DNA of 64,000 nt from an uncultured delta proteobacterium (GCA_963796685.1 CAWCMR010000025.1:352001-416000), one strand, 5' to 3'. Positions 13,341 to 60,476 are shown, numbered from the stretch's first letter. Numbers and translations: made by a program. Notes: generated by a model not told the origin, from the sequence alone.

Positions 13341-13554
13341 GGCTGGATGGTTACTCTAGTCTCTAGCCTCGCGGCGTCAAGAACGATGGCCAGGGCGCTC
13401 GGCCGGTGCGGGAGATTTCGATGGCAGGGCCGGTCTTGGAACGGATTCGAACCAGAGCTCCGGTTCGATGGACAAAAGGGCCATATCGCGCTAGGTGAGG
13501 CGAAAAGAAATGGCGGTGGCAGGTTCGTGGGCCACCAGGGAGTGTGCAAGCAAA

Positions 13555-20509: not shown

Positions 20510-22744
20510 ATGCTGCCCGGAGTCGCCTTTCGCGCACGCCTCAACCGCCTCTTGCTCAACAAGCGGGTGGGGGGATTGGTTGCGCTCGCCATCGTCGCCG
20601 CGACCTACCCCGTCTCGTGCGGGGCGCTCGGCGGACGCCTGGTGACGTCCAAGCTGGCCGCCAAGCTCGGCGTACCGGTCGAGTACGGCAAGGCGCGGGC
20701 GGGCTGGGGGGCGCTGCACATTTCGGGCCTCGTGCTGGGACCCAAGGCCAGCCCTCTTCTCACCATCGCCAAGGCGGACATCTCGTTCGCCGTGGCCTGG
20801 GGCTCGGGCACGGTGGTTCTGGATTCGCTCCACGCCGACATCCGCCGCGGTGGCGCGGCTGACAACGCCAGCGTCCTTCTGGAGCGGCTGCGCAAGCCCT
20901 CCGTTCGCGGAGGCAGCAGCAAGCAAGCGTCGTATCCGGTGGTCGTCGTTCACCACGGCACGTTGAGCCTCCAGGACAGCAAATCCAACCTCTCGCTGAC
21001 GGTGGGAGCCTTCGACGCCACCTGGGAGCCGTCGCGCCGATTCTCGATTGCAGCGGTTACGGTGGGTGGAACGCTCGGCTCGCACGGCGGCGAGAACGCC
21101 CCGTCCTTCGCGGCGGAGTCCGTAACCATCGAAGGCCCCTTGGCCGGCATGCGCCCGCACGGGTTTCCGGAGATCTCGGTCAAGGAGGGGCAGGTCCGGC
21201 TGCTGCCCACCCTGCCCTTGACCGGTATCACCGGCAGCCTGCGGCCAACCCAAGCCGGCGAGGACGCGGTCGACGTCTTGTTCACCGGAAGCTACGCCGG
21301 TGCCAAGCGGTCGCTGTGGACCGCGACCGGCAAGGTGAAGCCCGCCGTGGACTGGTCGAACGTCGACGGACAGGTGGCCCTGCGCGCCGAGCGCTTCTCG
21401 CTCGACAAGATCGCGGATGTCTTGCCCGCGTCGATCCTCGAGCCCGAAAACACGGAGATCGATGCCGCCATCGAGGCGCGCTTTTCCGGGCGGCAGGTCG
21501 AGCTGTCGGGAAGGCTGGACGTCGACGGGCTGAGCGTGTCGCACGAGAGGCTGGCCAGCGAGCCGGTCGAGAACACGAGCTTCACCCTGCGTTTCGACGC
21601 CACCGTCGATCGCGACCGGCGGCGGCTGGATCTGGCGCAGCTCGAAGGCAAGATCGGCAGTCTGGTGGTTCGTCTGACGGGCTCCATCGAGCTCCCGGTG
21701 GGGACCTTCAAGTTCAAGGACGGGCGCGAGCTGAAGGTGGTTCCCAAGATCGAGCTTTCCTTGCGCGTGCCGCGTACGCCGTGCGCGAAGATCCTGTCCA
21801 GCATTCCCGCGCCGCTCGTGCCCAAGCTGCAGGGGTTCGTGCTGCAGGGCCTGTTCGAGGCCGATGTCCACGCCAAGATCGATTTCAGCAATCTCGACGC
21901 CCTCGACCTCGGCGGCAAGGTCGGCATCGACGGCTGCCAGGTGGTCAAGGCCCCCGACGAGGTGATGGCCCTGGCTGGGCCCGAGTCGATCTTGCAAACC
22001 GTCGAAGTGCCGCCGCCCCCGTCGGGCGGCAAGGACGACGAAACCCTGACCTTCGTCATCGGTCCCGACAACGTGGACTTCGTGCCCTACGACAAGATCT
22101 CGCCCTACCTCATCGCCGCCATCCTGACCACCGAGGATTCCGGCTTCTTCAAGCACCGCGGCTGGGTGTCGTCGCAATTCAAGACCGCGCTCCGGCGCAA
22201 CATCGCGGGCGGCGGCTTCCGCCTGGGCGCCTCGTCCATCACCATGCAGATGGTGAAAAACGTGATCCTCACGCGCGAGAAGACCCTGTCGCGCAAATTC
22301 CAGGAGTTGTTCCTGGTCTGGTTCGTCGAGCAGATCTTGACCAAGCAGCGCATCCTCGAGCTCTACTTCAACGCCATCGAATTCGGCCCACGCCTGTACG
22401 GCATCGGACCCGCGGCGCGACACTACTTCGGCAAGAGCGCGGCCGACCTGTCGCCCATGGAGGCGGCCTTCTTCTCGTCCATCCTGCCCAGTCCCAAACG
22501 ACGCTACGTGCAGTACTGCCACGGGTCGCTCTCCCCGCAGTGGGAACGCTATGTGCACAGAATCTTGAATAAGATGCACGAACGTGGCCGACTCAACGAC
22601 GAGGAATTCACCACGGCCCTCGCCTCGACGTTGGTGTTCGACAAATCCGAGATGACCATGACCGAGAAACAATGCCTGGACTGGGTTCGCAAGATCACGG
22701 CGAAACCCGAGCCCGAGCCCGAACCGGACACGGACGAGAAGTAG
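20510..22744 (+). CDS. Peptidoglycan transglycosylase (GT51) with long N-terminal beta-rich region
   Basis: TEDSGFFKHRG, GASSITMQMVKN, RKFQE and KQRILELYFN motifs; no transpeptidase domain. Confidence 0.88.
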   Translation: MLPGVAFRARLNRLLLNKRVGGLVALAIVAATYPVSCGALGGRLVTSKLAAKLGVPVEYGKARAGWGALHISGLVLGPKASPLLTIAKADISFAVAWGSGTVVLDSLHADIRRGGAADNASVLLERLRKPSVRGGSSKQASYPVVVVHHGTLSLQDSKSNLSLTVGAFDATWEPSRRFSIAAVTVGGTLGSHGGENAPSFAAESVTIEGPLAGMRPHGFPEISVKEGQVRLLPTLPLTGITGSLRPTQAGEDAVDVLFTGSYAGAKRSLWTATGKVKPAVDWSNVDGQVALRAERFSLDKIADVLPASILEPENTEIDAAIEARFSGRQVELSGRLDVDGLSVSHERLASEPVENTSFTLRFDATVDRDRRRLDLAQLEGKIGSLVVRLTGSIELPVGTFKFKDGRELKVVPKIELSLRVPRTPCAKILSSIPAPLVPKLQGFVLQGLFEADVHAKIDFSNLDALDLGGKVGIDGCQVVKAPDEVMALAGPESILQTVEVPPPPSGGKDDETLTFVIGPDNVDFVPYDKISPYLIAAILTTEDSGFFKHRGWVSSQFKTALRRNIAGGGFRLGASSITMQMVKNVILTREKTLSRKFQELFLVWFVEQILTKQRILELYFNAIEFGPRLYGIGPAARHYFGKSAADLSPMEAAFFSSILPSPKRRYVQYCHGSLSPQWERYVHRILNKMHERGRLNDEEFTTALASTLVFDKSEMTMTEKQCLDWVRKITAKPEPEPEPDTDEK

Positions 22745-22749
22745 CCGAC

Positions 22750-25131
22750 ATGGCCGAAAGGGACGACAGCGGGAGGCCAAGGCGCAAGAAAAAGAAGCCG
22801 GGCAAACGCACGTGGCTGCGGCGCCTGATCCTGGTGGGAATCATCTTGTTGGCGCCGGTGGTCGTGGGCGCGGGGACGCTGGTCGGCATCTTCTATTATT
22901 ACGGCGACGATCCGGCCATGCCCAGCCTGAGCGGCATCGGCGACTATCACCCGGAGCAGATCATCAAGGTGCTCGACCGCGATGGCACCCTCATCGGCGA
23001 GATCGGGTCTGTCCACCGCACCGTGGTGCCCTACGCGAAGATCCCCAAGATCATGATCCAGGCCCTGCTGGCCGCGGAGGACGCCGACTACTTCGAGCAC
23101 GAGGGCGTGGATTACAAAGGCATGGCGCGCGCCTTCGTCGAAAACATCCTTCGGCGCAAGTTCGCCCAGGGCGCCTCGACCATCACCCAGCAGGTGGTCA
23201 AGCAGCTCTTGCTCACCCCGGAGAAGAGCATGCGGCGCAAGGTGCAGGAGATCATCCTGGCGCGCCGGTTGTCGCAGCGCTTTTCCAAGGAAGACGTGCT
23301 GGCCATCTACCTCAACCAGATGTGTTTCGGCCACGGCCGCTATGGGGTGGAGGAGGCCGCGCGCTACTTCTTCGGCAAGTCCATCAGCGACGTCGACGTG
23401 GGCGAGGCGGCGCTGCTGGCCGGGCTGGTGCAGTCGCCCGAGCGACTCTCGCCGTACAAACATCCGGACGCGGCCAAGAAGCGTCAGATCTACGTCCTGG
23501 GGCAGATGGTCAAGCTCGAATACATCTATGATGACGTGGCCCAGAAGATCGCCGCCGCGCCCATCGCGGTGATCCCCGAGGGACAGGCGGTGCCCAGCGT
23601 GGCCCCCGAGGCCGTGGACACCGTTCGCAAGCTGCTCGAAGCCAAGTACGGCGCCGACAAGCTCTCGACCCTCGGCATCGAGGTCAAGACCACCATCGAT
23701 TCGCGCTTGCAGGCCATGGCCCGCTGGTCGCTGGAACGCGGCCTCGAGGAAGTGGACCAGCGCCACGGCTTCCGCGGTCCCATCGCCCACCTGTCGGGTA
23801 GAGCGCTGGACAGAAAGCGCGCCGAGCTGGTGGCCGAGCGCAAGAAGCCCTTGACCGAGAACGACAAGACCGACGGCATCGTCGAGAAGGTCGACAAGAG
23901 CCCCGACAATCCCAGGCAGGTCTCGCTGACGGTGTTCGTCGGCGACCGCAGCGGCGTCGTCGACATGACGGCGGAGCCCCGCTACAACCAGGGCACCAAG
24001 CCGCCGCTGGCCGAGCGCTTTCATCCCGGTGACCTCGTGCGCGTGCGCCTGGCCCCAGAGCGCAAGCACGACAGCAACGGCAACGTCGCCCTGGCCCTGG
24101 AGCTCGGCCCGCAGGCGGCCATGGTCGTGATGGATCCGCTGCGCCACGAGATCCTGGGCCTGGTGGGCGGCTACCGCTACCGGCTGGGCACCTTCGATCG
24201 CAGCCAACGCGCCCACCGCCAACCCGGCTCGGCCTTCAAGCCCTTCATCTACGCCGCCGCCATCGATTCCAAGCGCTACACCGCCGCCTCGATCGTCAAC
24301 GACAGCCCCGAGGTGTTCAAGCTGTGGAAGCCGCAGAACCACGACAAGGACAACTTCCGCGGTCCCATTCGCCTGCGCGTGGCCCTGGCCAATTCCATCA
24401 ACACCGTCGCCATCAAGCTGCTCTCGGACGTGGGCGTGGTGGCCGCGCGCGATATGGCCGCGCGGGCCGGGCTCGACTTGCCGCCGGTGGAGAAGCTCGA
24501 TTTGTCGCTCGCCCTCGGCACGGCCACGGTCACGCCCCTCGAGCTGAGCAACGCCTACGCCACCTTCGCGGACGCGGGTCAATCGGGCGACGCGCGCCTG
24601 ATCACCGCCTTCGGCAATGAGGCCGCCCCCGCGCCCGTGCTGCCGCAATCCATTCGCCCCGAGACCGCCTACGTCACGGTTTCGCTCATGCGCAGCGTGA
24701 TCGAGTCGGGAACCGCACGCAGCGCCGCCCCCAAGCTCAAGCGCCCGGCGGCCGGCAAGACCGGAACCACCGACGAAGAGCGCGACGCCTGGTTCGTCGG
24801 CTTCACCCCCGAGCTTCTCGCAGGGGTCTGGGTCGGCTTCGACGAGCGCCGCATGCTCGGCCGCGGCGAGGAAGGCGCCCACACCGCCTTGCCCATCTGG
24901 ACCGAATTCATGGTCAAGGCCCTGGCCGGCACCCCCGTGACCGACTTCCCCCAGCCCCCCGGTATCGTCGTCGCGCGCATCAATCCCACCACCGGCCTCT
25001 TGGCCGCCCCCGGCAGCGAAGGCCTCGACGAGGTCTTCCTCGACGGCACCGCCCCCACCGAAACCGCCGCCCCTCCCGGCGAGGAAGCGACGCCGGACCA
25101 GATGCTGATGGAGGGACACGGGGGGCCGTAG
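22750..25131 (+). CDS. mrcA: Class A penicillin-binding protein 1A
   Basis: GT51 motifs (AEDADYFEH, GASTITQQVVK, RKVQE) and transpeptidase SAFK, SIN and KTGT motifs. Confidence 0.93.
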   Translation: MAERDDSGRPRRKKKKPGKRTWLRRLILVGIILLAPVVVGAGTLVGIFYYYGDDPAMPSLSGIGDYHPEQIIKVLDRDGTLIGEIGSVHRTVVPYAKIPKIMIQALLAAEDADYFEHEGVDYKGMARAFVENILRRKFAQGASTITQQVVKQLLLTPEKSMRRKVQEIILARRLSQRFSKEDVLAIYLNQMCFGHGRYGVEEAARYFFGKSISDVDVGEAALLAGLVQSPERLSPYKHPDAAKKRQIYVLGQMVKLEYIYDDVAQKIAAAPIAVIPEGQAVPSVAPEAVDTVRKLLEAKYGADKLSTLGIEVKTTIDSRLQAMARWSLERGLEEVDQRHGFRGPIAHLSGRALDRKRAELVAERKKPLTENDKTDGIVEKVDKSPDNPRQVSLTVFVGDRSGVVDMTAEPRYNQGTKPPLAERFHPGDLVRVRLAPERKHDSNGNVALALELGPQAAMVVMDPLRHEILGLVGGYRYRLGTFDRSQRAHRQPGSAFKPFIYAAAIDSKRYTAASIVNDSPEVFKLWKPQNHDKDNFRGPIRLRVALANSINTVAIKLLSDVGVVAARDMAARAGLDLPPVEKLDLSLALGTATVTPLELSNAYATFADAGQSGDARLITAFGNEAAPAPVLPQSIRPETAYVTVSLMRSVIESGTARSAAPKLKRPAAGKTGTTDEERDAWFVGFTPELLAGVWVGFDERRMLGRGEEGAHTALPIWTEFMVKALAGTPVTDFPQPPGIVVARINPTTGLLAAPGSEGLDEVFLDGTAPTETAAPPGEEATPDQMLMEGHGGP

Positions 25132-25404
25132 AAGCAGCGACAGGTCGAGGGTCAGCCTCGCGGGGCGCCTTGCCGTCCGGATTCGGCCGTCGCGTTCGCT
25201 CCAGCCCTCCCCTTGTCGGAAAGATTGCGGCGTTCGCTGCCTTGTACGCATGTGTTGCTCTCTTGCTCCGGGTGGGGTACCGAGGTGTCGCCGAGCTACG
25301 TGGCCGGAGGCTTCTCTACCTTCTAAGAATCCTAGAGCGCATACGGCTTGATTTGCGGTTTGGCCGTGTTATTCAGGGACCTCTCGCGGAGCAGCGCAGC
25401 AGGT

Positions 25405-26019
25405 CTATGCGCCTACGGCGCCGGCAGGAAGCGCATTCGTCGCATCGTTCAGCCAGCTCCGAAGGCTCCTCGCGTCCTTTGGAATGGCCTGAAAGTTTGC
25501 GCTGCGAACGACCTCGACCATGGCGGGAGTATTCTTGGCCACAATGCCCTTCTCTTGCGCGGCTTTCTGCACGGCCGACTTGCCGCGGATCTCGGTGCCA
25601 CCTTCGCCCAGCAAGGCAAGAAGCCAGCCCTCCAGAGCCGGAACTGCTGCCGCTCCAACTATGGAAAGGGAGCGGGCATCCCCCAGGGCGACACGGATGG
25701 CGTCCGAGATCACGCGCGGTCGCGCTTTGTCGTCATCCGAATCTCGCGTGAAAGCCAGGATGCTCGCTCCCGCGCGGCGGGCTTCCAACGCTAAACCCCG
25801 TACGTTCTGTTGGTCGCTCGGACTTGGACCCCGGGCGCGTAGCTTTACGATGTTGCACCACTTGCACGCTCCTATGACGGTCCAGCCATCCGGCGGGACT
25901 CGCCTAAGCAGAGCTTCGATGACGCCTGGTGATTCGTCGCTCTGGTACACAGTTTCGCCACATCGGCTGCCGAGCTCGTTCTTTCCTTCTCCACCTAGGA
26001 AGAGCTTCAAGTCACTCAC
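25405..26019 (-). CDS. TOPRIM-like (DUF4276/RloB-like) partner of an ABC ATPase
   Basis: LFLGGEGKNE (EG motif) and FTRDSDD (DxD). The GTG start overlaps the ATPase stop. Confidence 0.55.
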   Translation of the reverse strand: MSDLKLFLGGEGKNELGSRCGETVYQSDESPGVIEALLRRVPPDGWTVIGACKWCNIVKLRARGPSPSDQQNVRGLALEARRAGASILAFTRDSDDDKARPRVISDAIRVALGDARSLSIVGAAAVPALEGWLLALLGEGGTEIRGKSAVQKAAQEKGIVAKNTPAMVEVVRSANFQAIPKDARSLRSWLNDATNALPAGAVGA

Positions 26020-26340
26020 GAACGCGGGCTCCCGTTCAGAAGCGGCGCTTCCATGCGGCCGTCGCAATAGCTGACCCAGAATTCGCCCGGCTGGTAGACC
26101 TTTGACGCTTCCTCGAAGCCAGGAACATCCTTGAGGAGCTTCGCGGCTGTACCCGTCTTCGGATCTCGAGTGACGATGCTGACCTCGTCGCCCTTGAGCT
26201 CGTTGACCACGAGTGGGCTGTGTGTGGCGATGATGACCTGACTGTTCTTGGAGATCTCGCGCAAAATCGTCATGACATCGCCGATGCGTGCCGGGTGCAA
26301 TCCGTTCTCTGGCTCTTCGACAAGAAACAGCTTGGATTCG
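26016..26340 (-). pseudogene. C-terminal remnant of an ABC/AAA_21-type ATPase
   Basis: LFLVEEPENGLHP (Walker B/D-loop) and QVIIATHSP (H-loop). The Walker A half is missing. Confidence 0.8.
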
Positions 26341-26425
26341 CCAAGATACGTCGAGAAACACATGTCGTGTGGCTCTCCGGCTGGGCACACGAACCGGCTG
26401 TCCGCCGCAAGAATCCCGTCGTGTA

Positions 26426-26547
26426 CCTACGTCACGGTCTCGCTCATGCGCAGCGTGATCGAATCGGGCACTGCACGCAACGCCGCCCCCAAGCTCAAGC
26501 GCCCAGCCGCCGGCAAGACCGGAACCACCGATGAAGAGCGCGACGCC
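26426..26547 (+). repeat. pbp1A fragment copy 1 (matches 24668-24789)
   Basis: 122-nt ungapped alignment encoding YVTVSLMRSVIESGTAR.AAPKLKRPAAGKTGTTDEERDA. Confidence 0.95.
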
Positions 26548-26613
26548 ACGGTTGATCGTCTAACCAAATGCATCCGGTAGCGGCGGGAACGCAGTTATGC
26601 TGTAGGTTGCTCT

Positions 26614-26970
26614 GTGGAGGTGCATGGCCCCTACCCTCGCGCGACCGGGAGCTTCATGTTGAAGCCCGCTTACTTCTCGACCGCCCACCCGTGGCTCCTG
26701 TTTTCCAAGGTGGATCCCGGCTGCCCCATCACGGTCAAGGGCATGAGCCGCGATGGTATCGTGGCCTTTCGTCTGCCCGAGGTACGGTTGCATGCCGATG
26801 TCAAGATCGGGCGGCGGAGCCTGCAGGCGCCCCTTCGCCTCGACACCGTTGAGCTAAAACCCGAGGAGCACCGGCTCTCGTGCGTGCTGCGCTCGGCCTT
26901 TCGCTACTACGTTCATCCGGGCGAGCACCGCCACGTCACCTTGAGCGATGCCAACGCGGGGAGTGGTTGA
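26614..26970 (+). pseudogene. DUF2169-like (T6SS accessory) C-terminal remnant
   Basis: YFSTAHPWL...ITVKGMSRDG...FRLP...LRLDTVELKPEEHRL..V.R resembles DUF2169 C-termini. It is followed by a short Pro-rich PAAR-leader-like fragment. Confidence 0.55.
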
Positions 26971-27305
26971 TGATTGTCTGGAGCATCAACAGCCTGAACT
27001 TCGTCCTCGGCCTGACGACACACAAATACCTTCCTCTGCCGGCGCCGACGCCCGTCATCGCCGGGGCAACAGACCCGTTACCCTGGACCTGCCAGGGGCA
27101 TCCCCACGGATCGTTCTACGCACGGCGCGCAGCGACGTCGCGCTGAATCCGCGGCCATTTCAAATAGACTGGGACATCGACCACAGTCGACTGACCATGG
27201 TCTGGGGCGCCGGAGTTCCCCTTGCCCACCCCTCGCTAAGCAGCCTGTCCGGACAGGAGTTGCTCGAATGCCGATCATCGCCACTTGATCATCGCCCCGC
27301 CCATG

Positions 27306-27571
27306 CCGGAACCACCGACGAGGAGCGCGACGCCTGGTTCGGCGGCTTCACACCCGAGCTGCTGGCCGGCGTCTGGGTCGGCTTCGACGAGCGCCGCATG
27401 CTCGGCCGCGGCGAGGAAGGAGCCCACACCGCCCTGCCCATCTGGACCGAATTCATGGTCAAGGCCCTGGCCGGCACTCCCGTCACCGACTTCACCCAGC
27501 CCCCCGGCATCGTGGTCGCGCGCATCGATCCCACCACCGGTCTTCTGGCCGCCCCGGCAGCGAAGGCCTCG
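27306..27571 (+). repeat. pbp1A fragment copy 2 (matches 24761-25027)
   Basis: ~266-nt alignment encoding GTTDEERDAWF.GFTPELLAGVWVGFDERRMLGRGEEGAHTALPIW..., with one 1-nt deletion. Confidence 0.95.
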
Positions 27572-27897
27572 TCCTGCACTGGCTGCACGGAGGCGCTACC
27601 AGCCTCAAGAACCTTGCCCTTGTGTGCACTCACCACCATCATTTGCTCCACGAGGGTGGCTGGTCCGTCGAGCGAACGTCGGACGGAGATTTGCTCTTCC
27701 GCGCGCCGGACGGACGAGAAATGCCAGCGGTACCTGCGAGCGAAGTCAGCGAAGATGCGCGCGTGTTCCTGAAAGAATGGGCCGAAGAGCGTGGGATGGA
27801 CATTGGGGCGGACACCAACATGCCGCTGTGGGATGGGACGCGGATGGACTACGACTGGGCAGTGGCGATGCTGACGTCGGAGTCTGGGTTACTATGA
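27572..27897 (+). pseudogene. HNH endonuclease (DUF222-type) C-terminal remnant
   Basis: HWLHGGATSLKNLALVCTHHHHLLHEGG (HNH) and the tail PLWDGTRMDYDWAV. Confidence 0.75.
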
Positions 27898-28033
27898 TGC
27901 TCGCAAGAAAGGCCCGCGCAGCCAGCGTCAACTACAGCAAGCGGTGCACTTAGGCGAACTCTCGTGAGACTGGGAAAAAATGACAAAGTACATCTACCGG
28001 TTTCGCTCAACACGTGCCGCCTTGGACCAGCAC

Positions 28034-28093
28034 GCGAGGAGCGGGCATCCCAGCGGCCCGCCGGACCGGCCATGCCGACGCTCGAGGTGACCC
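28034..28093 (+). repeat. 60-bp direct repeat (second copy at 30672-30731)
   Basis: GCGAGGAGCGGGCATCCCAGCGGCCCG...CTCGAGGTGACCC, with one mismatch between copies. Confidence 0.9.
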
Positions 28094-28396
28094 GCCTGTA
28101 TCGGTTACGCTCCATCAAGCGAGAGTGAGGACGGCCACTTACGCTTGCTCTCCGGAGCTGGGGAGGAGCCAGAAGAAAACAACAGGAAGCCACCGTGTAA
28201 CTCTGCAACTCGCCTCCTGGCAGGCGAGCACGCAAGCGATCCGGTGCTTGCCCGGCTCGTGGCCCTGCAAGCGTACTGGCGGCATGCCCACGACGACAAG
28301 GTGGTGTGCCGAGGGCTGCTCGACCTGTTGGAAGAGCAGTAGCCATGGCGTTTCTATGGTCGCAATCTGCGACTTCAAGTTACCATTGCCACATCC

Positions 28397-28930
28397 ATGC
28401 CTGACCAGCACGTCGTGCCCCTCGAACGGGTAGAGCGCTCAATCCTGATTTTGCGCGGTCACCGGGTCATCCTCGATTCGGACCTTGCCGCTCTCTACGG
28501 CGTGTCCGTGAAGCGGCTCAACGAGCAGGTCAAACGAAACATCGATCGGTTCCCCGACGATTTCGCGCTCACCCTGACCGAGGAAGAGCACGAAGCTTTA
28601 AGGTCGCAATTTGCGACCTTAAAGACCGGCCGAGGTGAGCACCGAAAGTACCTGCCCCGCGCCTTCACCGAGCACGGCGCGCTCATGGCCGCATCGGTGC
28701 TCAACTCGCCGAAGGCCGTGGAGATGAGCATCCTGGTCGTACGCGTCTTCGTGCGCCTCCGCCAGATCCTGGCCAGCAACCGCCAACTCGCCGCCAAGCT
28801 GAACGAGCTGGAGCAAAAGATCGCCGCCCACGACAAGAACATCGTGGCCCTGTTCCAAACCGTGCGCAACTTGATGGTCGTGCCGGAGAAGCCGAAGCGT
28901 AGGATCGGGTTCAACAGGGAAGGGGCGTAA
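28397..28930 (+). CDS. ORF6N-domain DNA-binding protein
   Basis: RGHRVILDSDLAALYGV..KRLNEQVKRNIDRFPDDF, YLPRAFTEHGALMAASVLNSPKA and a C-terminal RRIGF. Confidence 0.92.
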   Translation: MPDQHVVPLERVERSILILRGHRVILDSDLAALYGVSVKRLNEQVKRNIDRFPDDFALTLTEEEHEALRSQFATLKTGRGEHRKYLPRAFTEHGALMAASVLNSPKAVEMSILVVRVFVRLRQILASNRQLAAKLNELEQKIAAHDKNIVALFQTVRNLMVVPEKPKRRIGFNREGA

Positions 28931-29200
28931 CCGGCCGAGGGATAGGCAGCATTCGCATGGACTCGAATGAAAGGTTCCTCGTCGACGAATTGTGCCAGAG
29001 GATCACGTAGCAGATATTCCACGAGCGAGACATCCTGGCCCTGCGGATTCTTTTGAGGGGACACTCGGCCTGGAGACCCGACAATTCCAGCGGCTTCCAG
29101 TGACCCGAGCCCGCGTTTCTCGAGATCGGCCTGGCGCCGTTCCACGCGATCGCTTCCAGCCCAGGCCCTGGTAGCCAGGGATCATGGATAGGCAATCGGA

Positions 29201-29626
29201 TTGCCTTCTGCCCGCCTGGCACCCGAACACGATTCCGGGCTGACTTGTCACCTGCTGGGCATTCGCACCAAGGAGCAGCTGTATGCGCACCCGCTGCGCG
29301 GAGCCATCTTCGAATCGTGGATGGTTTCCGAAGTGGCGAAGGCGCGGCTTGGCGGCGGCCTGTCGCCGCGCACGTTTCACTACCGAGAATCCCGGGGCCC
29401 AGAGGTGGACCTGCTGGTACAAGGGGAGAAGAGCTGGATCTTGGCCGAGGCCAAGTCGGGCAGCACCGTGGATTCCTCATTCTTCGCGGGAATGGAGCGC
29501 TTCTCCACGCGCCTTCCCAAAGGCGCGTCCATCGTCCGCCGCCTGGTCTACGGCGGCAGCGAACCGCAACAGCGCCAAGGCGTGGCCGTCACCCCATCGG
29601 CGAAGATCCAGGACAGCCGCTGGTAA
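29201..29626 (+). pseudogene. DUF4143 C-terminal remnant of an AAA_14 ATPase
   Basis: DSGL...GAIFESWMVSE...HYRESRGPEVDLL...EAKSG. The ATPase domain is absent. Confidence 0.75.
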
Positions 29627-29644
29627 GCCTGCGATGGCCGGCTC

Positions 29645-29968
29645 CTAAGCCGCTGCCTTGCCTTTGCATGAGCCGGGCCAGATGGCTCGCAGAACCGTGC
29701 GTGGGAACTTTTCGATGACGGTCAGCAGAACCAACGCCGGACCGTCCGGGGTGCGGCGTCCTTGTTCCCAGTTGCGGACCGTTCCAAGGCTGACCCCGAA
29801 TGCGGCGGCGAACTGCTCTTGGGACAGTCCCAACTTTCCCCGCGTGGCGGCCACATCCACATCGCTGGCCCGCATCTTACGCACACGACCGCGGGCTTTG
29901 GCGCCCTTGCTGAACGCAATCGCGTCTTCGAGTCCTTCAGCGATAGCCTGGAATGCTTTTTTACTCAT
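29645..29968 (-). CDS. higA: HigA-type XRE HTH antitoxin
   Basis: LGLSQEQFAAAFGVSLGTVRNWEQGRRTPDGPALVLL, downstream of a RelE-like toxin. Confidence 0.88.
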   Translation of the reverse strand: MSKKAFQAIAEGLEDAIAFSKGAKARGRVRKMRASDVDVAATRGKLGLSQEQFAAAFGVSLGTVRNWEQGRRTPDGPALVLLTVIEKFPRTVLRAIWPGSCKGKAAA

Positions 29969-29971
29969 GGT

Positions 29972-30316
29972 TCACCTCTTGAAGTACTTCTTCAACTCCC
30001 TCACCAACGCGGCGAGCTGGTTTCGTTCTGCCATGGACAGATTGTCCTTTTGGTTCTTGGCGAACAGCGTGAGCAGAAAGGTGGGTACGTCTTCGCTGTG
30101 GAAGAACTAGACGACTCGGACTCCTCCGCTCTTTCCCCGTTCTCCGATGGCCACGCGGACTTTGCGAACACCACCGGTTCCCTTCATGATCACGCCGCAG
30201 GCCGGATCTCTTGCGATCGTCTCTATGACTCGGTCCTGCTCTTCCTGGGTCAGGAGTTTCTGTACCCTGGCCTGGTAGCTGCGCGTTTCGACGACCGAGA
30301 TCCATCTTTCCACCAC
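29972..30316 (-). pseudogene. higB: HigB/RelE-family toxin with in-frame TAG at 30107-30109
   Basis: GTGGVRKVRVA...GKSGGVRVV* continues in frame as FFHSEDVPTFLLTLFAKNQKDNLS. Confidence 0.85.
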
Positions 30317-30550
30317 GGCATCGATACTACGCCATTGGCGCATACTCGGCAAGGTGGCCGAGCGGGATGGCAAGGACGTTGGCTGGACGCGTGCATCTCC
30401 CAGCTTTGGAAGCGATCGCGAAAAGCGGCGCCATGGCGATCCCGAGAAGTGCGGGCTCGGATGGACACAAGTTGCCTACGGCATCGCGGCCTTGTTACGG
30501 AAGCCGCCTGGAGCGCATCGAATGTGTAAACCTGCGAAGGCGAGGTCATC

Positions 30551-31131
30551 ATGAGTGCATCGAGCGCACTTCTTCCGTTCGCCGATCGAGCGCTGACGGA
30601 CTTCATCCGTGGCCTCGCGACGGCGCCCTCGCTGAGCGAGGTTGGGGACGTCGCGAAGCTGCGCCGCCTCGGCGAGGAGCGGGCATCCCAGCGGCCCGCG
30701 GGACCGGCCATGCCGACGCTCGAGGTGACCCTCGGCGGGGGATGCCGCGGCGCTCGGCTTTATCGTCCCCCATCGACTATCGCCGGGCGCCCGAGCATCC
30801 GGTGCCGGCGGCCATCGACGATGCCGTCGCTGCTCTCGAGTGGGTTGCCTCGCGTCCGACGGAGCTTGGCCGAAGTCCCGACGCGGTCACCGTCGCGGGC
30901 GAGCTCCATCCCCTGAGGGACCAAGGCGAGGCGTTCGGGGCACGGTTGGTGGCCGCCGGTGTGCCGGTGCTCATGCGACGCGAGCTGGGCATGGTTCACA
31001 ACTTCTTGCTCTGGGATCGGGTATCTCCGGTGTGCGCGGACGCTGGGCGGCGTGTGGCCGCCGATATCTTCGACGGTCTTGCGAGGATTTCCCGAAAAAA
31101 ACTGCCTCCGCTCCAGCCTTCCCACAGATGA
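30551..31131 (+). pseudogene. Alpha/beta hydrolase (HSL-like esterase) remnant with internal deletions
   Basis: DYRRAPEHP.PAAIDD, PLRDQGEAFG.RL...GV and GMVHNF. The HGGG and GDSAG segments are lost. Confidence 0.75.
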
Positions 31132-31138
31132 GCGCCAC

Positions 31139-31298
31139 GTGTTGCGCAATAGCAACACAACCCCAAAGGCGAACTTCACACCTGCTCACCGACATCTCGC
31201 CGGCCCTGTCCAAGAATTGACAGTGCGGCTGACAGCGTGGCAATTTCAGCCACGGAATTGGGTAACCAGGACGACCTCGTACTGGCATAAGGATTGCT
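31139..31298 (+). promoter_or_regulatory. Sigma-54 promoter (31283-31298) with upstream palindromic enhancer-like sites
   Basis: TGGCATAAGGATTGCT fits GG-N10-GC. Palindromes: GTGTTGC-N6-GCAACAC (31139-31158), TGT-N10-ACA (31207-31222) and GTGGC-N7-GCCAC (31237-31253). Confidence 0.7.
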
Positions 31299-31320
31299 TA
31301 CTCGGAGTCGTGAGGTCAGC

Positions 31321-31554
31321 ATGAATTTGTCAAACTGTAGGTTTGTTGCAGCCCCACTGGTCCGACGGACCCTCATCGTCCGAGGAGATGTCCGCGCCGA
31401 TGTTGCATTTCAGAACGACATCAATGCGTTGATGTTTCAAATCGAAGAGGAACCGGTACCGTTTCGTTGTGTGGCCAGCCTCACATCATACAGCGTCGAC
31501 TGGCTCGAGAAATGCGCACCGGAGACGAGCTTCGGTGAAATCGGCCAGCACTGA
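31321..31554 (+). CDS. Small hypothetical protein (77 aa)
   Basis: ATG preceded by GAGG, just downstream of the sigma-54 motif. Confidence 0.5.
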   Translation: MNLSNCRFVAAPLVRRTLIVRGDVRADVAFQNDINALMFQIEEEPVPFRCVASLTSYSVDWLEKCAPETSFGEIGQH

Positions 31555-31592
31555 CCACCGACGACGATGATGATGATGGTGACGGTCTTCGA

Positions 31593-31870
31593 TCAGGGAC
31601 AGGTGTTCAGGAAGACCTGCCAGCCATCTGGCCGGGTCACGATGATGTCGAGCTTGGTATCGTGGTTGAGGTCACCCATGAGGAGAGCCTGGAATGGCTG
31701 CGGCAGCCCACCGGTGCATGGAAAGCTCAGAGGGGTGGCAAATCCGCCTCGTCCATCGCCCAGGTATACGGCGATAGAGCTCTTCTCCTCGGTGGTCGAC
31801 ACCGCCTCCTGCGCGGCGACGATGTCGGGGTTGCCATCGCCATCGATGTCGGCCACCCCGAGAGAATCTA
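31593..31870 (-). pseudogene. FG-GAP/VCBS repeat protein 3' remnant
   Basis: ADIDGDGNPDIV and GDLNHDTKLDII repeats; no 5' part. Confidence 0.65.
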
Positions 31871-32068
31871 CAAGTATCTGCGGCGGGGCGGGACCAAGTC
31901 CTCCAGGTCTGCCGCGGGGCCGGCCAACTGGCGAGCCCACCGCTTCACCTGGCTCAGATGACGCTCGTAGAGCGCATCAATGGGGTCCGCCGAAGCGGCA
32001 CTTGCGCCGGTGTCTCCGTCGGCTATGGCCAAACGTGGCTTCATTCTGAGGTCCGCTCCTGTACTCAC
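31868..32068 (-). pseudogene. ECF sigma factor 5' remnant
   Basis: DALYERHLSQVKRWARQLAGPAADLEDLV, then truncated. Confidence 0.6.
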
Positions 32069-32248
32069 GCCCCGAGCTCACGAAACCTTACGAGTGCGGT
32101 GTCCGGAAAATGGTCGCGTTGTTTCTCGCATAACTTCGACAGGATTAGGGAGCAGCCTCCGGTGACCCGAGCCCCGCGTTTCACTATTTGCCATGAGCTC
32201 GAGCGCATGGTGCTATTGTGCGACCCCTACCGAGGAGAGCATTGGACC

Positions 32249-33287
32249 ATGTGCAGTTTGGGTTCTCGCGAGCTGACAGACCTGTTGAAAATCTCAGTCA
32301 TTGGCGCCCTGCTTGGCGGAGGCTCGGCCTGCACGACGGCTCTTTACAACGGCCCCTCCAGGCCCCCGTCGCAAGTTGCCTCCATTGGAACGCGAAGCGG
32401 AGCCGAGATCTTGGCCATCGACGAGACAGATGTGAATGGAGGCGCCTTCGCCAGGTACGAGGTCCTGCCTGGGCGCCACCTGATCACCTTGGTGGGGAAA
32501 AAGTCGCAAGCGGGTTTCTTCGTGACCACGACCTTCACGTCGCGGGAGCAGGAACTGTGTCTCGACGCCGCTCCCGAGCACGACTACGACGTCGGTGCAC
32601 GTATCGGCAGTCGCGGTTGGGAGATAGAGGTCATTGACGAATCGAGCAAGGAAGACGTCCAGGGATGCGATGACGCTCCCCCGGGTCCGGGCTCTGCGGG
32701 TGTGCCGCGATCGTCCGCTGCGGTTCTTCTCCATGACCCCAAGCCCGGAAACGGCTTCTTGTTCCTCATGAGTGGCGACTTTGGAGGCGAGAACCTCGTC
32801 CGGGCGACCATGTCGAATGGAAACACGCAGACGCTATCCGGGGGCACGGGGATTCTCTTTGGGTTGGGCGCCGCGTACACGCCTCTGTGGATCGGCGATA
32901 CGATGGGACTCGGCGCGGACGCGCGCATCGGGATCAAATACGATTCCATCGATGCATCGAATGCCAGCATCAGCAAGCTGAGCTATCCATTCTCGGCCGG
33001 GATTCACGATTACCTGAAGGTGAGCCGGCGTTGGTACTTCACCTTGGCGGGGGGGAACGCACAAGGAGCTCGGCGCCGGACTTTCGGGTAGCGGCGACGC
33101 CACCGGGAGCGTCAGCTTCGGCTCGCCCTGGGGATGGTATGGCGAAGGCGGCTTTCTATTCGCGGAAACATGGCACTCCGCCATTGCTTTCACGGTTCGC
33201 TACACGAACATGAAACTGACCTACGCCGGGCAAGACATCGGGGCGAGCAACGTCGGCATCGGGTTGACAGTGCAGATCAATCCGTAG
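32249..33287 (+). CDS. Putative lipoprotein with C-terminal outer-membrane beta-barrel; frameshift in G-run near 33050
   Basis: Lipobox-like GGSAC and amphipathic beta strands. After the G7 run the frame continues ...YTNMKLTY...NVGIGLTVQINP*. Confidence 0.55.
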
Positions 33288-33346
33288 CGAGCTGGTCCGC
33301 CCAACCGCGCACTCCTCATGATCGTCTCCAACATGACCGAGGTAGC

Positions 33347-34636
33347 CTATCCGATTCCCCGGACGATCGCGCGCCAGTAGGAAGCTGGGAGCCCGTATTT
33401 GAACATCCACCACGTCGGCCTGTTTGCGCTCCATAGGCCCGCCCATCTCAACCAGGGATAGCGAGGTTTGTTGCTCCTATCGAAGAGCACCAGCATCGCC
33501 TTGCCTATCCCGGAAGGGACCATGCAACCCGTCGTTCCTCGATACTCCTCACGCAACTCCTTGCCCTGTAAGTAGCGAAGCACGTTATCGATCAATGGCC
33601 GCGTCCTGAAATGGACCGCGGCGCCGGTCTTGAATATCGGGGGCTCTGCGATCGTATCACCGTTCGGCCACACGCTTGGATATTGGGGATGTTGCCCATA
33701 CGGATTCGCAGGAACAAAACCACGAAAGCCATCCTTTGCCGCGATGGGATTTTGGTCCAGCCACGGCGAGGGCTTCATCGGCGGCACCATGTGGCTCATG
33801 GCGTATTCGATCTCTTCCGTCCCGCCCGTGTCCAGGTTGGCGAAGACAAGGGCTTTTCTGATGTGATCGACTCGAATGAGATTTCGATTGCAGAACACTT
33901 CGATTCCGTTGGATTTCAGAATGCCTTCCAGCCTGGCTTGGTAATCAGGCACAGGGAAGAGGATTGAATTGCCGAGGTAGATCTTGATATTGACGTTGTG
34001 TCTTGCTTTTCTGGCGCGCAGAACACTGTCGATCATATTGGCAATCTTGAAGATGGCCCCGGCACATTTGAACATGACGTTGGGCCGAACAAATACGTAA
34101 TTGCCTGAAACTGGCCTCTCGAGCATCGCCCGAATTCTGCCCAGTGTTTTCGGCTCGTAGACGCTGCTGAGGCTATCATCGTCACGCATGGCTGCCGCCA
34201 ACCCATCGATTTGGACGTAATCCGGGTGGATGCCCGAAGCTGGGATCAGGATGTCATAGGACAACTTCTCACCCCCTGCCAGCCTCACCGATTTGCAAAT
34301 CGGATCGACATCGACGACGCTGTCCCTCAATAGTGCAGCCTTGCGGGGGATTAGACTTTGGGTGGGACGGGTAATCTTTGCTTCCCCCAATTGCCCCACC
34401 GCACACAATGGCAGAGCTGCTTGAAGCATGTGATCCAGGCGCGGCTCGACAATCGTCACACGACTGTCGGGTGCCCTCCGCAAAGCAGTGTGCGCCGACA
34501 TCAACCCAGCCATTCCGGCCCCGATGACGACGACGTGGGGTTGGCCGCCGTTGGACCTTGGCAACGACGTGCGACTGATTTTCGTTGACCCCTCTAGAGT
34601 GTAGTCGGGTCGGTGCGTAGGTATTTGAAGCGCCAT
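33347..34636 (-). CDS. sqr: Sulfide:quinone oxidoreductase-like flavoprotein
   Basis: VVIGAGMAG Rossmann motif, FKCAGA..K, HMVPPM, GD...KTGAAV and Y.G.TGC, matching type II SQR patterns. More AT-rich than the flanks. Confidence 0.7.
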   Translation of the reverse strand: MALQIPTHRPDYTLEGSTKISRTSLPRSNGGQPHVVVIGAGMAGLMSAHTALRRAPDSRVTIVEPRLDHMLQAALPLCAVGQLGEAKITRPTQSLIPRKAALLRDSVVDVDPICKSVRLAGGEKLSYDILIPASGIHPDYVQIDGLAAAMRDDDSLSSVYEPKTLGRIRAMLERPVSGNYVFVRPNVMFKCAGAIFKIANMIDSVLRARKARHNVNIKIYLGNSILFPVPDYQARLEGILKSNGIEVFCNRNLIRVDHIRKALVFANLDTGGTEEIEYAMSHMVPPMKPSPWLDQNPIAAKDGFRGFVPANPYGQHPQYPSVWPNGDTIAEPPIFKTGAAVHFRTRPLIDNVLRYLQGKELREEYRGTTGCMVPSGIGKAMLVLFDRSNKPRYPWLRWAGLWSANRPTWWMFKYGLPASYWRAIVRGIG

Positions 34637-34654
34637 TTTCCTTCAGCTGTAAAT

Positions 34655-34705
34655 TGTCAGGCCCATTTAGGAATGTCCCCATTCCTGCCAAGTGGAAATG
34701 TCCCC
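34655..34705. mobile_element. Isolated IS terminal repeat, IS1202/ISNCY-like
   Basis: Starts TGT and has two internal AATGTCCCC repeats (TGTCAGGCCCATTTAGGAATGTCCCC...GGAAATGTCCCC). No transposase nearby. Confidence 0.5.
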
Positions 34706-34777
34706 TTGGTCGGTCCTCGCAGACCATACCACCGTAAGGCCTGAAAAGGGCGTAAACCGGTCCTGCAGGCCTGCTGG

Positions 34778-34848
34778 CCGAAACCGCCCCTCCCGGCGAG
34801 AAAGCGACGCCGGACCAGATGCTAATGAAGGGACACGGGGGCCGCAGA
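34778..34848 (+). repeat. pbp1A fragment copy 3 (matches 25058-25132)
   Basis: CCCTCCCGGCGAG.AAGCGACGCCGGACCAGATGCT.ATG.AGGGACACGGGGGCCG.AGA aligns to the pbp1A stop region with small indels. Confidence 0.9.
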
Positions 34849-35229
34849 CAGCCCCTGCCGCGGGGCCGCGGTCTACCCATCGGTCGCCTTCCCACCCAGG
34901 TCTGGCCGTCGCCTCCACTCCAACCCTCCTCTTTCCAAGCAGCAGGCTCCCTCGAGCGCGCCTTTCAGCGCACACATCAGACTGTCGCCGCAGTCCACAA
35001 GGGTCGGAAGGTTGCATCGAATCGGCGACGCCCCAGCTGCTGAATGCCTGAGCCCGGATAGCCGGAACACGCCTCTATGGCCTGTTCACCGGGGCCATCG
35101 CTGGCGGCTGCGTCGACCTTCACGGCATTGTCGGCAAGGGACTTGGGAGTAAGTGAACCCCCGCAAATGCCTACATCGATTGACGTCTCCGTTCTGCGAT
35201 ACGATGGTGGCGAGAAAACGAGGTTTACC

Positions 35230-36891
35230 ATGCGTATCGTCGGCTTTTCGTCGCTCGGTCTTGTGGGCATCACGCTGCTGTCGGTGGCCTGCGGGTCGAA
35301 GAAGACGACCGATATTGTCTATGATGTCCCTCCGCAGCCCTGGCCCGCGGCGGCATGTGCCGCTGTGGCGAACGGCGGCACGAAGACAGTCGCTGCATCG
35401 GTGCTCGTCAAACAATTGATCGACACGGCGTCGCCCTACAGGTGGATGGAAGCCTGGCTTGGTGCCGCGTCGGTCGTCGATCTCGACGGCGACGGCGTCA
35501 AGGAGATCATCGTGCCTCGCGGGTCGACGGTGGAAGCCTGGCACCTCGATGGCACGGTGGCTTGGCACTTCGACACCACGCAAGACCGCATCTGGGCGAG
35601 CCCGGTCATCGCGGACTTCAACGGCGATGGCAAGCTCGAAGTCGCCGTGGCGGCTCGCCAAAAGGTCTACTTGCTCGATGGCACCGGCAAGGTCATGCGA
35701 GGGTTCCCGGTCACCTGGTCGATGGCGGGCGAAATACGCACGATCGCCGCGGGCGACCTCGATGGCGACGGCGTTCCCGAGATCATCGTGAGCCCCGCGA
35801 ACGGAAACTCGGTCACCACTTCGATCGGCGACGTCGACGACACCGTCATGGCGTGGAAGGGCGATGGCACCGTGTTCCCGCACTTTCCGCCGATTGCGGG
35901 CGGCGTGAGCGGATGCACCGACGAAAACGGCAGCTCGCCTTGCTACACGTACTGGGAATACGACCAAAACCTCGCCGTCGGCGACCTCGATGGCGATGGC
36001 AAAGCTGATTTGGTCGTGGGCCACGACGACGCGTACATCTCGATCTATCACTCGAACGGCGTGATGTGGGATTCGAACCCGGAGTTTCCGAACAAGAAGG
36101 TCGCGGGCGTGCGCATGCTGCTCGATCAGGCTCTCGCCATCCAAGGCTACGGGCCTGATAATGCCCTGCAAGCCCACTTCACCAACACTCCGCCCGCGAT
36201 CGCCGACATCGATGGCGATGGCGTTCCCGAAGTCATTTATCTGTCGAGCGTGCAGAACATCGCGCAAGACAATCGGCTTTTGGGGGTCGCGCTTTGGGTC
36301 CTGCACCCCGATGCCAGCAGGCTTGCAGGGTGGGAGACACCGTTCTACGTTGCCCCGTATTTGGCGGGTCTATGGGACTACGATGGCACCAACGTCGTCG
36401 CCGCCACGAACCAAGTGACCGTCGCCGAGATCGACCCGATAAAGGCCGGCCCAGAGATGATCTTCGCGGGCTTCGACGGCTACATCCACGCTGTCGCCGC
36501 GGACAAGACCGAGTTGTGGGCGACGCAATATACGAAATCGGACCAAGTGCTCACGGGCGGCGTCGTCGTTGCCGATCTCTCGGGCGATGGCGTGCCGGAG
36601 ATCGTGTTCAATACGTACTCGACACAGCAGAATGCGAGTTTCTTGTTCGTCCTCGATGCGACGGGCACGATCGTGCAGCAGGTGTCGCTATCGGGGCGTG
36701 GCGCGATGCCGGTGCCCACGATTGCGGATGTCGACGGCGACGGGCAGCTCGAGATCATCGTGTCGCTCAAGGACGCCGTGGAAGGTGTCGAGAGCGTCGA
36801 CGTCTTCACCGTGCCAGGGTCGGCGACCAACTGCATGCCGTGGCCCACCGGACGAGCGAATGATTTGCGCAATGGCTACGTGAGGCCGTGA
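35230..36891 (+). CDS. FG-GAP/VCBS repeat beta-propeller lipoprotein
   Basis: Lipobox SVAC and many D[L/I/F/V]DGDG..E[I/V] repeats. Confidence 0.87.
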   Translation: MRIVGFSSLGLVGITLLSVACGSKKTTDIVYDVPPQPWPAAACAAVANGGTKTVAASVLVKQLIDTASPYRWMEAWLGAASVVDLDGDGVKEIIVPRGSTVEAWHLDGTVAWHFDTTQDRIWASPVIADFNGDGKLEVAVAARQKVYLLDGTGKVMRGFPVTWSMAGEIRTIAAGDLDGDGVPEIIVSPANGNSVTTSIGDVDDTVMAWKGDGTVFPHFPPIAGGVSGCTDENGSSPCYTYWEYDQNLAVGDLDGDGKADLVVGHDDAYISIYHSNGVMWDSNPEFPNKKVAGVRMLLDQALAIQGYGPDNALQAHFTNTPPAIADIDGDGVPEVIYLSSVQNIAQDNRLLGVALWVLHPDASRLAGWETPFYVAPYLAGLWDYDGTNVVAATNQVTVAEIDPIKAGPEMIFAGFDGYIHAVAADKTELWATQYTKSDQVLTGGVVVADLSGDGVPEIVFNTYSTQQNASFLFVLDATGTIVQQVSLSGRGAMPVPTIADVDGDGQLEIIVSLKDAVEGVESVDVFTVPGSATNCMPWPTGRANDLRNGYVRP

Positions 36892-53572: not shown

Positions 53573-53818
53573 GGGATGGCTTTCTTCGACGGCCCACCCG
53601 AAGAAGCCAAGGCTCGCCCCGCGAGATCACGCGATCAGAGAACCCGGGGTAGAGATTCCAAAACGACTTCTCAGGACGCCGCCAACCGGGGACCAAGCGA
53701 GTACAAGGGAGACCTTGGGATGCACGAAGGCGGCTAAAGGTAACCGCAATTCGCGTGGCCCCATGGGCACCGGTCCAGTAGGTTCCACTCCCACCTGCCC
53801 CTGGCACCGCGATCGAAG

Positions 53819-60378: not shown

Positions 60379-60476
60379 GGTGTTGACGTCCAGAACGAGA
60401 CCGAAAAATACGCGCCCAGCGTTCAACGCCCGGGCCGCAAGAGGCACCAATAGGACAGCAGCATTGAGGTCGACGA

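Follow-up and report, generated by a model that had tools for sequence, protein, structure and literature searches.

Downstream of pbp1A, the gene for a class A penicillin-binding protein (PBP), an uncultured soil myxobacterium carries a second copy of that gene's last codons, displaced from the gene, broken into three pieces and embedded in foreign DNA of low GC content. The locus lies in a 64,000-nt stretch of a metagenome-assembled contig (GCA_963796685.1 CAWCMR010000025.1:352001-416000), hereafter the window, in which all positions are counted from the first letter. With middling confidence we read it as a scar left at the gene's 3′ end by a Campbell-type insertion-duplication, within a decayed accessory island, and we lean towards a homology-driven crossover as the event that produced it.

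A displaced 3′ end of pbp1A

The resident pbp1A (Table 1) is intact, being collinear as far as its stop codon with the genes of the five closest relatives found (L001-L005), and its product has the N-terminal glycosyltransferase and C-terminal transpeptidase domains of a class A PBP, with the KTGT motif visible in the translation. A preliminary description of the window had reported three further matches to successive parts of the gene, in the same order and orientation; these are confirmed with E-values from 2e-22 to 3e-110, all of them downstream of pbp1A and on the + strand like the gene itself. The third begins at 34778 (= 25058), as described, but its extent had been underestimated, since a gapped alignment continues past the stop codon to 34933 (= 25214). 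Within this piece an ungapped match (34784-34852 = 25067-25135) is 91.4% identical (E 2e-22), the coding part is identical at 55/58 positions (94.8%) across 25067-25124, and the non-coding tail, covering 83-85 nt after the stop codon, is 72.5% identical with indels. The duplicated segment measures 547 nt, as against ~460 nt by the earlier coordinates, and the 64-kb window holds no further copy of the pbp1A 3′ end beyond the three pieces. C-terminal parts of the NCBIfam models PBP_1a_fam and MrcA match the open reading frame (ORF) that runs through piece 2. The pieces contain two 1-nt indels, both of which fall within homopolymer runs (C5/C4 and G6/G5) and so may be long-read errors rather than real frameshifts.

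A 29-nt core lying over the KTGT-motif codons occurs three times in the window, at the end of piece 1 and the start of piece 2 as had been described, and within the resident gene; there are no mismatches to the degenerate pattern, against an expectation of 0 occurrences from 100 shuffles. The copies are mutually identical at 27-28 of 29 positions and are embedded in longer homology of 93%, adjoining truncated genes. Relative to copy A, copies B and C each carry a single difference, at separate sites, and both differences are synonymous and at third positions (A = C..A, B = T..A, C = C..G). Homology begins 93 nt before the core and continues for 83-85 nt after the stop codon.

Aligned to the resident gene, the pieces tile its end with a 29-nt overlap followed by a 30-nt gap (Table 1), and their divergence is indistinguishable, at 93.4, about 92.7-92.9 and 94.8% identity, with synonymous divergence (dS) of 0.265 and 0.29 for pieces 1 and 2. 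Because they tile a single copy at equal divergence, they are taken to be one displaced 3′ end that was interrupted twice later. A single displaced end with two insertions (758 nt and 7.2 kb) is far more economical than three replacements, and the earlier proposal that the gene's end had been replaced three times in this genome is not supported.

Table 1. Features of the pbp1A locus, in window positions
Feature	Position	Strand	Remarks
pbp1A, class A penicillin-binding protein, 819 aa	22672..25131	+	Open frame; Pfam Transgly 1.4e-61, Transpeptidase 3.8e-24
Resident copy of duplicated segment	24668..25214	+	Last 464 nt of pbp1A and 83 nt post-stop; matched piecewise by three downstream pieces
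Core copy A, 29 nt over KTGT-motif codons	24761..24789	+	Within resident pbp1A
204-aa conserved hypothetical gene	25405..26019	-	Intact; partner of truncated ATPase; no Pfam match
AAA_21 / OLD-AriA-GajA-type ATPase, C-terminal ~130 aa only	26016..26425	-	Pfam AAA_21 profile positions 258-304 of 304
Piece 1 of displaced 3′ end (= 24668-24789)	26426..26547	+	114/122 identical (93.4%), E 2e-48; ends in core copy B
Core copy B	26519-26547	+	End of piece 1
758-nt inserted block	26548..27305	+	Between core copies B and C; DUF2169 end and broken downstream ORF
DUF2169 gene, last ~80 codons	26581-26970	+	Pfam DUF2169 profile positions 214-294 of 294
Piece 2 (= 24761-25027)	27306..27571	+	92.9%, 18 mismatches, 1 gap of 1 nt, E 3e-110; opens with core copy C
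Core copy C	27306-27334	+	Start of piece 2
7.2-kb inserted patchwork	27572..34777	.	Replaces 30 nt (25028-25057) of displaced copy; profile matches listed by row
HNH-like C-terminal fragment	27572-27897	+	Fused to piece 2; E 0.028
Esterase fragment, isolated, 60 nt	28034-28093		N-terminal part, Abhydrolase_3 / LipP1-like
ORF6N/PDC-S05 gene	28397-28930		
DUF4143/PDC-S01 ATPase, last quarter	29192-29626		
NadS/HTH antitoxin	29645-29968	-	With broken RelE-like partner
Decayed esterase	30552-31131		
FG-GAP fragment	31593-31976	-	
Sigma-70 region-2 fragment	31871-32077	-	
SQR-like oxidoreductase	33347-34636	-	
Piece 3 (= 25058-25214)	34778..34933	+	Final 24 codons and non-coding tail; gapped alignment running past stop codon
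FG-GAP repeat protein gene	35077..36891	+	First past displaced end; Pfam FG-GAP_3 1.3e-31; inside low-GC stretch

Origin of the displaced copy

Divergence of each piece from the resident gene was estimated by the Nei-Gojobori method. Piece 1 gives a dS of 0.265 and a ratio of non-synonymous to synonymous divergence (dN/dS) of 0.04, its differences being exactly the seven synonymous and one non-synonymous (S>N) already counted in the preliminary description; piece 2, at dS 0.29 and dN/dS 0.06, has 18 differences, of which 15 are synonymous and 3 non-synonymous, and 13 fall at third positions, which bears out the earlier remark that most of them do. Pooling the codons of all pieces yields a dS of about 0.27 and a dN/dS of 0.08 (22 synonymous, 6 non-synonymous). 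Changes were also polarised, each being assigned to a lineage if the other state was common to at least 3 of 5 outgroups (L001-L005) and the overlap site 24777 being omitted. The fragment lineage then shows 7 synonymous and 3 non-synonymous changes (P = 0.004 under neutrality for at least 7/10 synonymous) and the resident lineage 7 and 1, with 10 changes unassigned. Low dN/dS and a fragment lineage that changed mostly at synonymous sites indicate that the displaced copy came from the functional allele of a close relative, and the earlier view of a displaced functional allele rather than a randomly decayed duplicate is upheld in this respect. Judged by its substitutions, the displaced copy appears to have passed nearly all of its divergence time inside the working gene of another lineage. 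The non-coding tail is about as divergent as the synonymous sites, which is to be expected of orthologous chromosomal DNA from a relative.

Among the 120 top-ranked full-length PBP1A homologues in a collection of 5.8 billion proteins, each piece is most similar to the resident allele; the next-best alleles are 88-92% identical for pieces 1 and 2 and 76-81% for the 17 aa of piece 3. The donor lineage was probably nearer to this genome than any sequence found in the collection. A few changes specific to the fragments affect conserved residues (V>G in WFVGF, two E>K; all G>A) and would suit a brief phase of decay. Sliding identity of the resident pbp1A to the genes of L001 and L002 shows no step at either 24668 or 24761, a result that says little either way about the earlier suggestion of a mosaic PBP1A. 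One candidate donor allele, P0197 (336 aa, 93.7% identical over 335 aa, encoded on a 276-kb contig), was rejected, as it has just 2 of the 6 residues specific to the fragments, alongside 2 private changes within the stretch that the pieces cover; it is a third allele, probably from a gene split by a frameshift.

The locus in related genomes

The locus was compared with 80 relative loci, including downstream flanks of up to 10 kb. The closest of these belong to uncultured Myxococcales/Polyangia, with amino-acid identities of 87% (L001), 81% (L002) and 69-75% (L003-L005). In 5/5 of them the sequence is syntenic with the window at the nucleotide level between 14909 and the pbp1A stop codon, where synteny ends. 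Right after the stop these five diverge, in nested fashion, into PMT/pntAB; an M66 peptidase; a Big_13 protein; OmpA/Hsp33/RNase HII; and tadA with an amidase. The more distant L008-L026 have a single conserved gene set downstream of pbp1A in common. Downstream ORFs of 16 relatives gave no match to the window at E <= 1e-10 except one ORF of L004, 44% identical to 60468-61295. What follows the pbp1A stop differs among L001-L005; an additional pbp1A 3′ piece was found by blastn in 0/23 relatives (in flanks of up to 10 kb), a second tblastn match for the pbp1A end in 0/78 loci, and the exact 29-mer in none of the 80. Variable cargo was considered as proof of an integration hotspot and rejected. 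A small ORF of L005 recurs in L004 5.6 kb downstream, and the syntenic block also ends at its opposite side, at 14909, in all five relatives, so that the evidence for a hotspot is weaker than it seems; ordinary synteny decay accounts for much of the variation after pbp1A.

L002 merits separate description. A search for short relatives of the C-terminal 180 aa returned P0216, a 151-aa protein with 2 differences from L002's PBP1A C-terminus (98.7% identical), which starts with a Met two codons past the position matching the start of piece 1. Its source contig of 1,866,838 nt, apparently L002's CAWAKD010000007.1, also encodes the full-length P0023, and P0216 is located outside the 23-kb stretch of L002 examined, contig positions 1347259-1370345, which includes 10 kb after pbp1A. 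Those 10 kb have a GC of 0.59-0.63 and carry HicA/HicB-like, ParE and DUF4258 modules with many unannotated ORFs; no recombinase was detected in their 86 ORFs, bar a sub-threshold zf-IS66 match (E 7e-4). L002, a second species, appears from these sequences to keep a displaced or duplicated PBP1A end, and to have a low-GC accessory region with different cargo after its pbp1A. Of the 120 best short matches to residues 640-819, 19 are 141-155 aa long and start at or near the conserved VSLMRSV. This excess at ~149 aa was rejected as a sign of widespread displaced ends: there are also peaks at 225-239 and 330-344 aa, and many of the proteins come from contigs of ~1 kb or begin with an internal Met/Val codon that is conserved. 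The most likely explanation is that gene callers place starts, and contigs break, at a conserved motif.

Repeats occur next to pbp1A in two relatives. In L005 a hairpin-forming 74-nt direct repeat (13060-13133 / 13381-13454, 93%) has its first copy ~10 nt past the pbp1A stop and its second before tadA, bracketing an ORF for a 72-aa membrane protein, the same ORF that stands 5.6 kb after pbp1A in L004. In L019 a perfect 37-nt direct repeat (12464-12500 / 12538-12574), with an overlapping inverted repeat, directly follows the pbp1A stop. Adjacent split ORFs of the same family are seen both in the window (52087-53626 (-), DUF1552/HXXSHH) and in L001 (16336-19537, PntB). Such splits reflect either pseudogenes or the indel errors to which long-read assemblies are prone, and they bear on the weight due to single-base frameshifts.

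A proposed insertion-duplication and its alternatives

In the sequence of events favoured here, DNA from a closely related lineage would have entered as, or become, a circle and recombined with the resident pbp1A, carrying its own last 464 nt or more of the gene (at least 464 nt), a downstream spacer of ~85 nt and accessory genes. The outcome would be two copies in one orientation with the incoming DNA between them, namely a regenerated, functional pbp1A and a displaced 3′ end, the latter being free to decay from then on. A deletion may then have taken its upstream part together with most of the ATPase gene (junction 26425/26426); a 758-nt block would have been inserted at the KTGT codons, duplicating 29 nt; and a 7.2-kb patchwork would have been inserted 240 nt further on, removing 30 nt. 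What is left is a low-GC accumulation of fragments of defence and toxin-antitoxin genes, with no integrase among them.

The extent of the shared sequence suggests that the exchange was driven by homology and not by a dedicated integrase, since what is shared before the core and beyond the stop codon exceeds what an element would need for restoring the gene. The ATPase gene is truncated exactly at the start of piece 1, and an HNH fragment is fused to piece 2; these look like illegitimate junctions and not like element ends. Such abrupt junctions to truncated genes are consistent with a homology-driven insertion-duplication, whether by RecA or by homology-facilitated illegitimate recombination (HFIR). 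Furthermore, the layout of an insert flanked by a long duplication is common to the 29-nt core and to an unrelated 60-nt esterase repeat that brackets a nearby block, which suggests a generic process.

Several observations weigh against this interpretation. Firstly, both of the later insertions fall within the 547-nt pseudogene, one of them exactly at its most conserved stretch and with a 29-nt duplication, an outcome predicted by accretion at an attachment (att) core and unexpected for random insertion. Secondly, the arrangement of the core's two variable sites is the one expected after a reciprocal crossover. Thirdly, the second PBP1A C-terminus of L002 hints at a recurrent, directed process. 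Fourthly, the two copies are about equally distant from L001 and L002, a measure that would suit either of them as the native one, and the circular form, an empty site and the donor are postulated.

Site-specific integration is the most serious competitor, if an unlikely one. The 29-nt KTGT core would be the att core of undescribed integrative elements that bear a replacement pbp1A 3′ end; two decayed, integrase-less elements (24790-26518 and 26548-27305) would stand in tandem, resembling cis-mobilisable elements (CIMEs), and beyond them would lie pieces 2 and 3 as the original 3′ end, later split by the 7.2 kb. Three direct and nearly identical core copies do delimit two blocks, the two variable sites fit reciprocal exchange inside the core, and no part of the 3′ region is better conserved than the target, which recalls tRNA and housekeeping-gene targets. 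A regenerated gene with a direct-orientation displaced fragment is the signature used in island mapping (PMC4383910), and integrase-less elements that keep their att sites accrete at the 3′ ends of rpmG, rpsI, fda and rplL (PMC7563491). The additional C-terminus of L002 and the low-GC, toxin-antitoxin-rich region after its pbp1A point the same way.

The machinery that such elements require is nevertheless missing from the ORFs searched. Searches for integrase, resolvase and transposase were negative in all 78 region ORFs of at least 70 aa (E <= 0.01) and all 68 of 40-69 aa (E <= 0.05), and neither these 146 ORFs nor 37 others selected elsewhere in the window by GC at third codon positions (GC3) encode an integrase, excisionase, relaxase, coupling protein or VirB4, or a remnant of an integrase, excisionase or relaxase. 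Likewise there is no recombinase in the 45 ORFs after pbp1A in L001-L005, nor in the 86 of L002 apart from the zf-IS66 match noted above. The hallmarks of an integrative element are present in part, as an intact target and a displaced fragment, with no integrase inside the interval; no functional integrative and conjugative element (ICE) or integrative and mobilisable element (IME) stands in tandem within the window, as would accompany a CIME. Nor does the locus resemble an insertion sequence or transposon, having no transposase and duplications as long as 29 nt and 60 nt, with no terminal inverted or direct repeats above shuffles at the ends of the three blocks. The failure to find the exact 29-mer in the 80 loci, or a displaced fragment in the flanks covered for 23 relatives, also counts against a dedicated site, as do the homology that reaches well left of the core and past the stop at neutral divergence and the truncated genes that adjoin the core copies.

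An in-situ duplication of the pbp1A end followed by divergence, without horizontal transfer, is improbable. It would account for the finding that, among the 120 top-ranked homologues, no allele is nearer to any of the pieces than the resident one, and for the fragment-specific V>G (WFVGF) and two E>K at conserved residues. Against it stand the mostly synonymous changes of the fragment lineage (7:3, P = 0.004) and a dS of 0.27 with dN/dS 0.05, which needs long selection; a truncated 3′ piece cannot experience selection, and divergence in place is disfavoured on that ground.

Still less probable is an assembly artefact that placed two strains or haplotypes in series within a metagenome-assembled contig. 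All relatives are metagenome-assembled, the window's 2.12-Mb contig is probably a long-read product, and both the window and L001 contain homopolymer indels and split genes. The pieces, however, at 122-266 nt and with truncated unrelated genes attached, are far below read size, and the region is a mosaic of ~10 unrelated gene fragments, not two alternative haplotypes. Equally slight is the likelihood of three independent replacements of the pbp1A end, each leaving its own fragment: although core copies B and C differ at 2/29, so that pieces 1 and 2 need not share a molecule, and sequence after pbp1A varies among L001-L005, those core differences also fit post-duplication change or crossover, all pieces have the same divergence from the resident gene, and independent remnants would abut twice within 30 nt and in order in only ~1% of cases by a rough, inferential estimate.

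Accessory DNA between and around the pieces

The intervals hold a low-GC patchwork of gene fragments in which a few small genes are intact, and GC is 0.58-0.63 over 25-39 kb against 0.65-0.69 in both flanks. A blastn search of 25132-33100 (from the 25132-34777 interval) matched 4 plasmid records, all on the PBP piece only, and no phage, so that the cargo was rejected as a recognisable mobile element. Within the window the only further copies of cargo sequence belong to the 60-nt esterase repeat and to an inverted repeat of 54 nt; tRNA and Rfam scans returned no tRNA and no RNA family, and promoter and terminator scans gave site counts no higher than shuffle level.

Between the gene and piece 1, a two-gene module (25405-26425 (-)) consists of an ATPase reduced to its C-terminal third and an intact 204-aa partner. 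The ATPase fragment also matches the C-terminal parts of PADLOC AriA/HEC-01A/GajA and NCBIfam MAD3/PtuA, and the partner has 76 homologues at E <= 1e-5, all of ~200 aa and none with a Pfam domain. The two are a candidate uncharacterised defence pair. The 758-nt block contains the end of a DUF2169 gene. DUF2169 genes usually adjoin vgrG, and a gene for VgrG, the type VI secretion spike, lies at 10566-13355 (-), 12 kb 5′ of pbp1A and just outside the relatives' syntenic block; no sequence link between it and the DUF2169 fragment was found within the window.

In the 7.2-kb patchwork, the 60-nt direct repeat (28034-28093 / 30672-30731, 98% identical), whose second copy lies inside the decayed esterase, brackets a 2.6-kb block with the ORF6N gene, the DUF4143 fragment and the toxin-antitoxin pair. 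The 54-nt inverted repeat (29105-29158 / 30407-30460, 83% complementary) surrounds 1.25 kb with the DUF4143 fragment and the NadS/RelE-like pair, and could be a trace of inversion or else delimit a small element. A pair of similar palindromic sites separated by 244 nt (28355-28378 and 28596-28624, the second a 29-nt near-perfect palindrome) are placed just 5′ of the ORF6N/PDC-S05 start (28397) and inside that gene, and look like operator sites.

Directly 5′ of pbp1A lies a gene (20510-22744 (+)) for a 744-aa protein whose N-terminal part is YdbH-like and whose C-terminal domain is a transglycosylase. A portion of this gene is 72% DNA-identical to the transglycosylase region of pbp1A, which places two glycosyltransferase genes in tandem.

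Relation to known systems and significance

Integration of e14 or phage 21 at icd of Escherichia coli regenerates the gene from element-borne 3′ codons and leaves the icdC pseudogene (PMC13626634, citing Hill et al. 1989). The pbp1A locus shares with it a regenerated housekeeping gene with mostly synonymous differences and an original 3′ end at the far side in the same orientation. It differs in that e14 has its own integrase and excises, whereas no recombinase is present here, and in that homology to pbp1A is also found on the 5′ side of the putative crossover and beyond the stop codon, with the displaced end in three pieces.

The principle behind Islander, developed for tRNA and tmRNA genes, is that a regenerated target and a direct-orientation fragment mark the ends of an island, tandem arrays also being found (PMC4383910). 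At pbp1A a regenerated target and a displaced fragment likewise bound inserted DNA, but Islander needs an integrase in the interval and, in tandem arrays, an integrase and a fragment for each island; pbp1A, a protein-coding target, offers neither. Streptococcal CIMEs, decayed, integrase-less and flanked by att sites, pile up at the 3′ ends of rpmG, rpsI, fda and rplL, range from 130 bp to 13 kb and, in arrays, are most decayed farthest from the gene (PMC7563491). Those detected in that study were found beside a live ICE or IME sharing their att site, by a method blind to single CIMEs, and the window has no live element; they also belong to a different phylum, and the repeat at pbp1A is part of a 547-nt homology.

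In HFIR and in transformation merodiploids, one homologous anchor combined with illegitimate joints imports DNA, and partial duplications arise (PMC3240628, PMC3784515). These are reported laboratory observations in E. coli and Streptococcus pneumoniae, and any such route of DNA entry at pbp1A would be conjectural. The pneumococcal cps locus lies between pbp2x and pbp1a, and homologous exchange there can drag in PBP ends, making mosaics. That exchange is a clean double-crossover replacement without displaced gene ends, in another organism and another PBP context.

By analogy with e14 at icd and with tRNA-gene islands, the anatomy of the pbp1A locus, in which foreign DNA lies between a regenerated gene and its displaced 3′ end in direct orientation, would be the product of a circular molecule carrying the gene's end. 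The type of event is known from icd/e14 and tRNA-gene islands, and pbp1A as its target would be new. A literature search pairing PBP1A with an integration site found none among the 15 top-ranked full-text results, a weak test. We know of no earlier 3′-end docking marker of this kind in uncultured myxobacterial genomes.

A wider proposition, which we regard as rather doubtful, is that Polyangia-type myxobacteria host undescribed integrative elements with the 29-nt KTGT att core, which would replace the last ~125-150 PBP1A codons, leave displaced ends on repeated visits (as in the window and L002), give rise to islands of defence and toxin-antitoxin genes behind pbp1A and exchange the C-terminus of this essential cell-wall enzyme among species. 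If the locus is a one-off scar, it is ordinary genome biology, and a clear example both of a displaced gene end that records the allele of a partner genome and of how scars fill with junk. If the process is real and recurrent, pbp1A would join the short list of protein-coding genes that dock accessory DNA at their 3′ ends, and the site would move the transpeptidase C-terminus between lineages.

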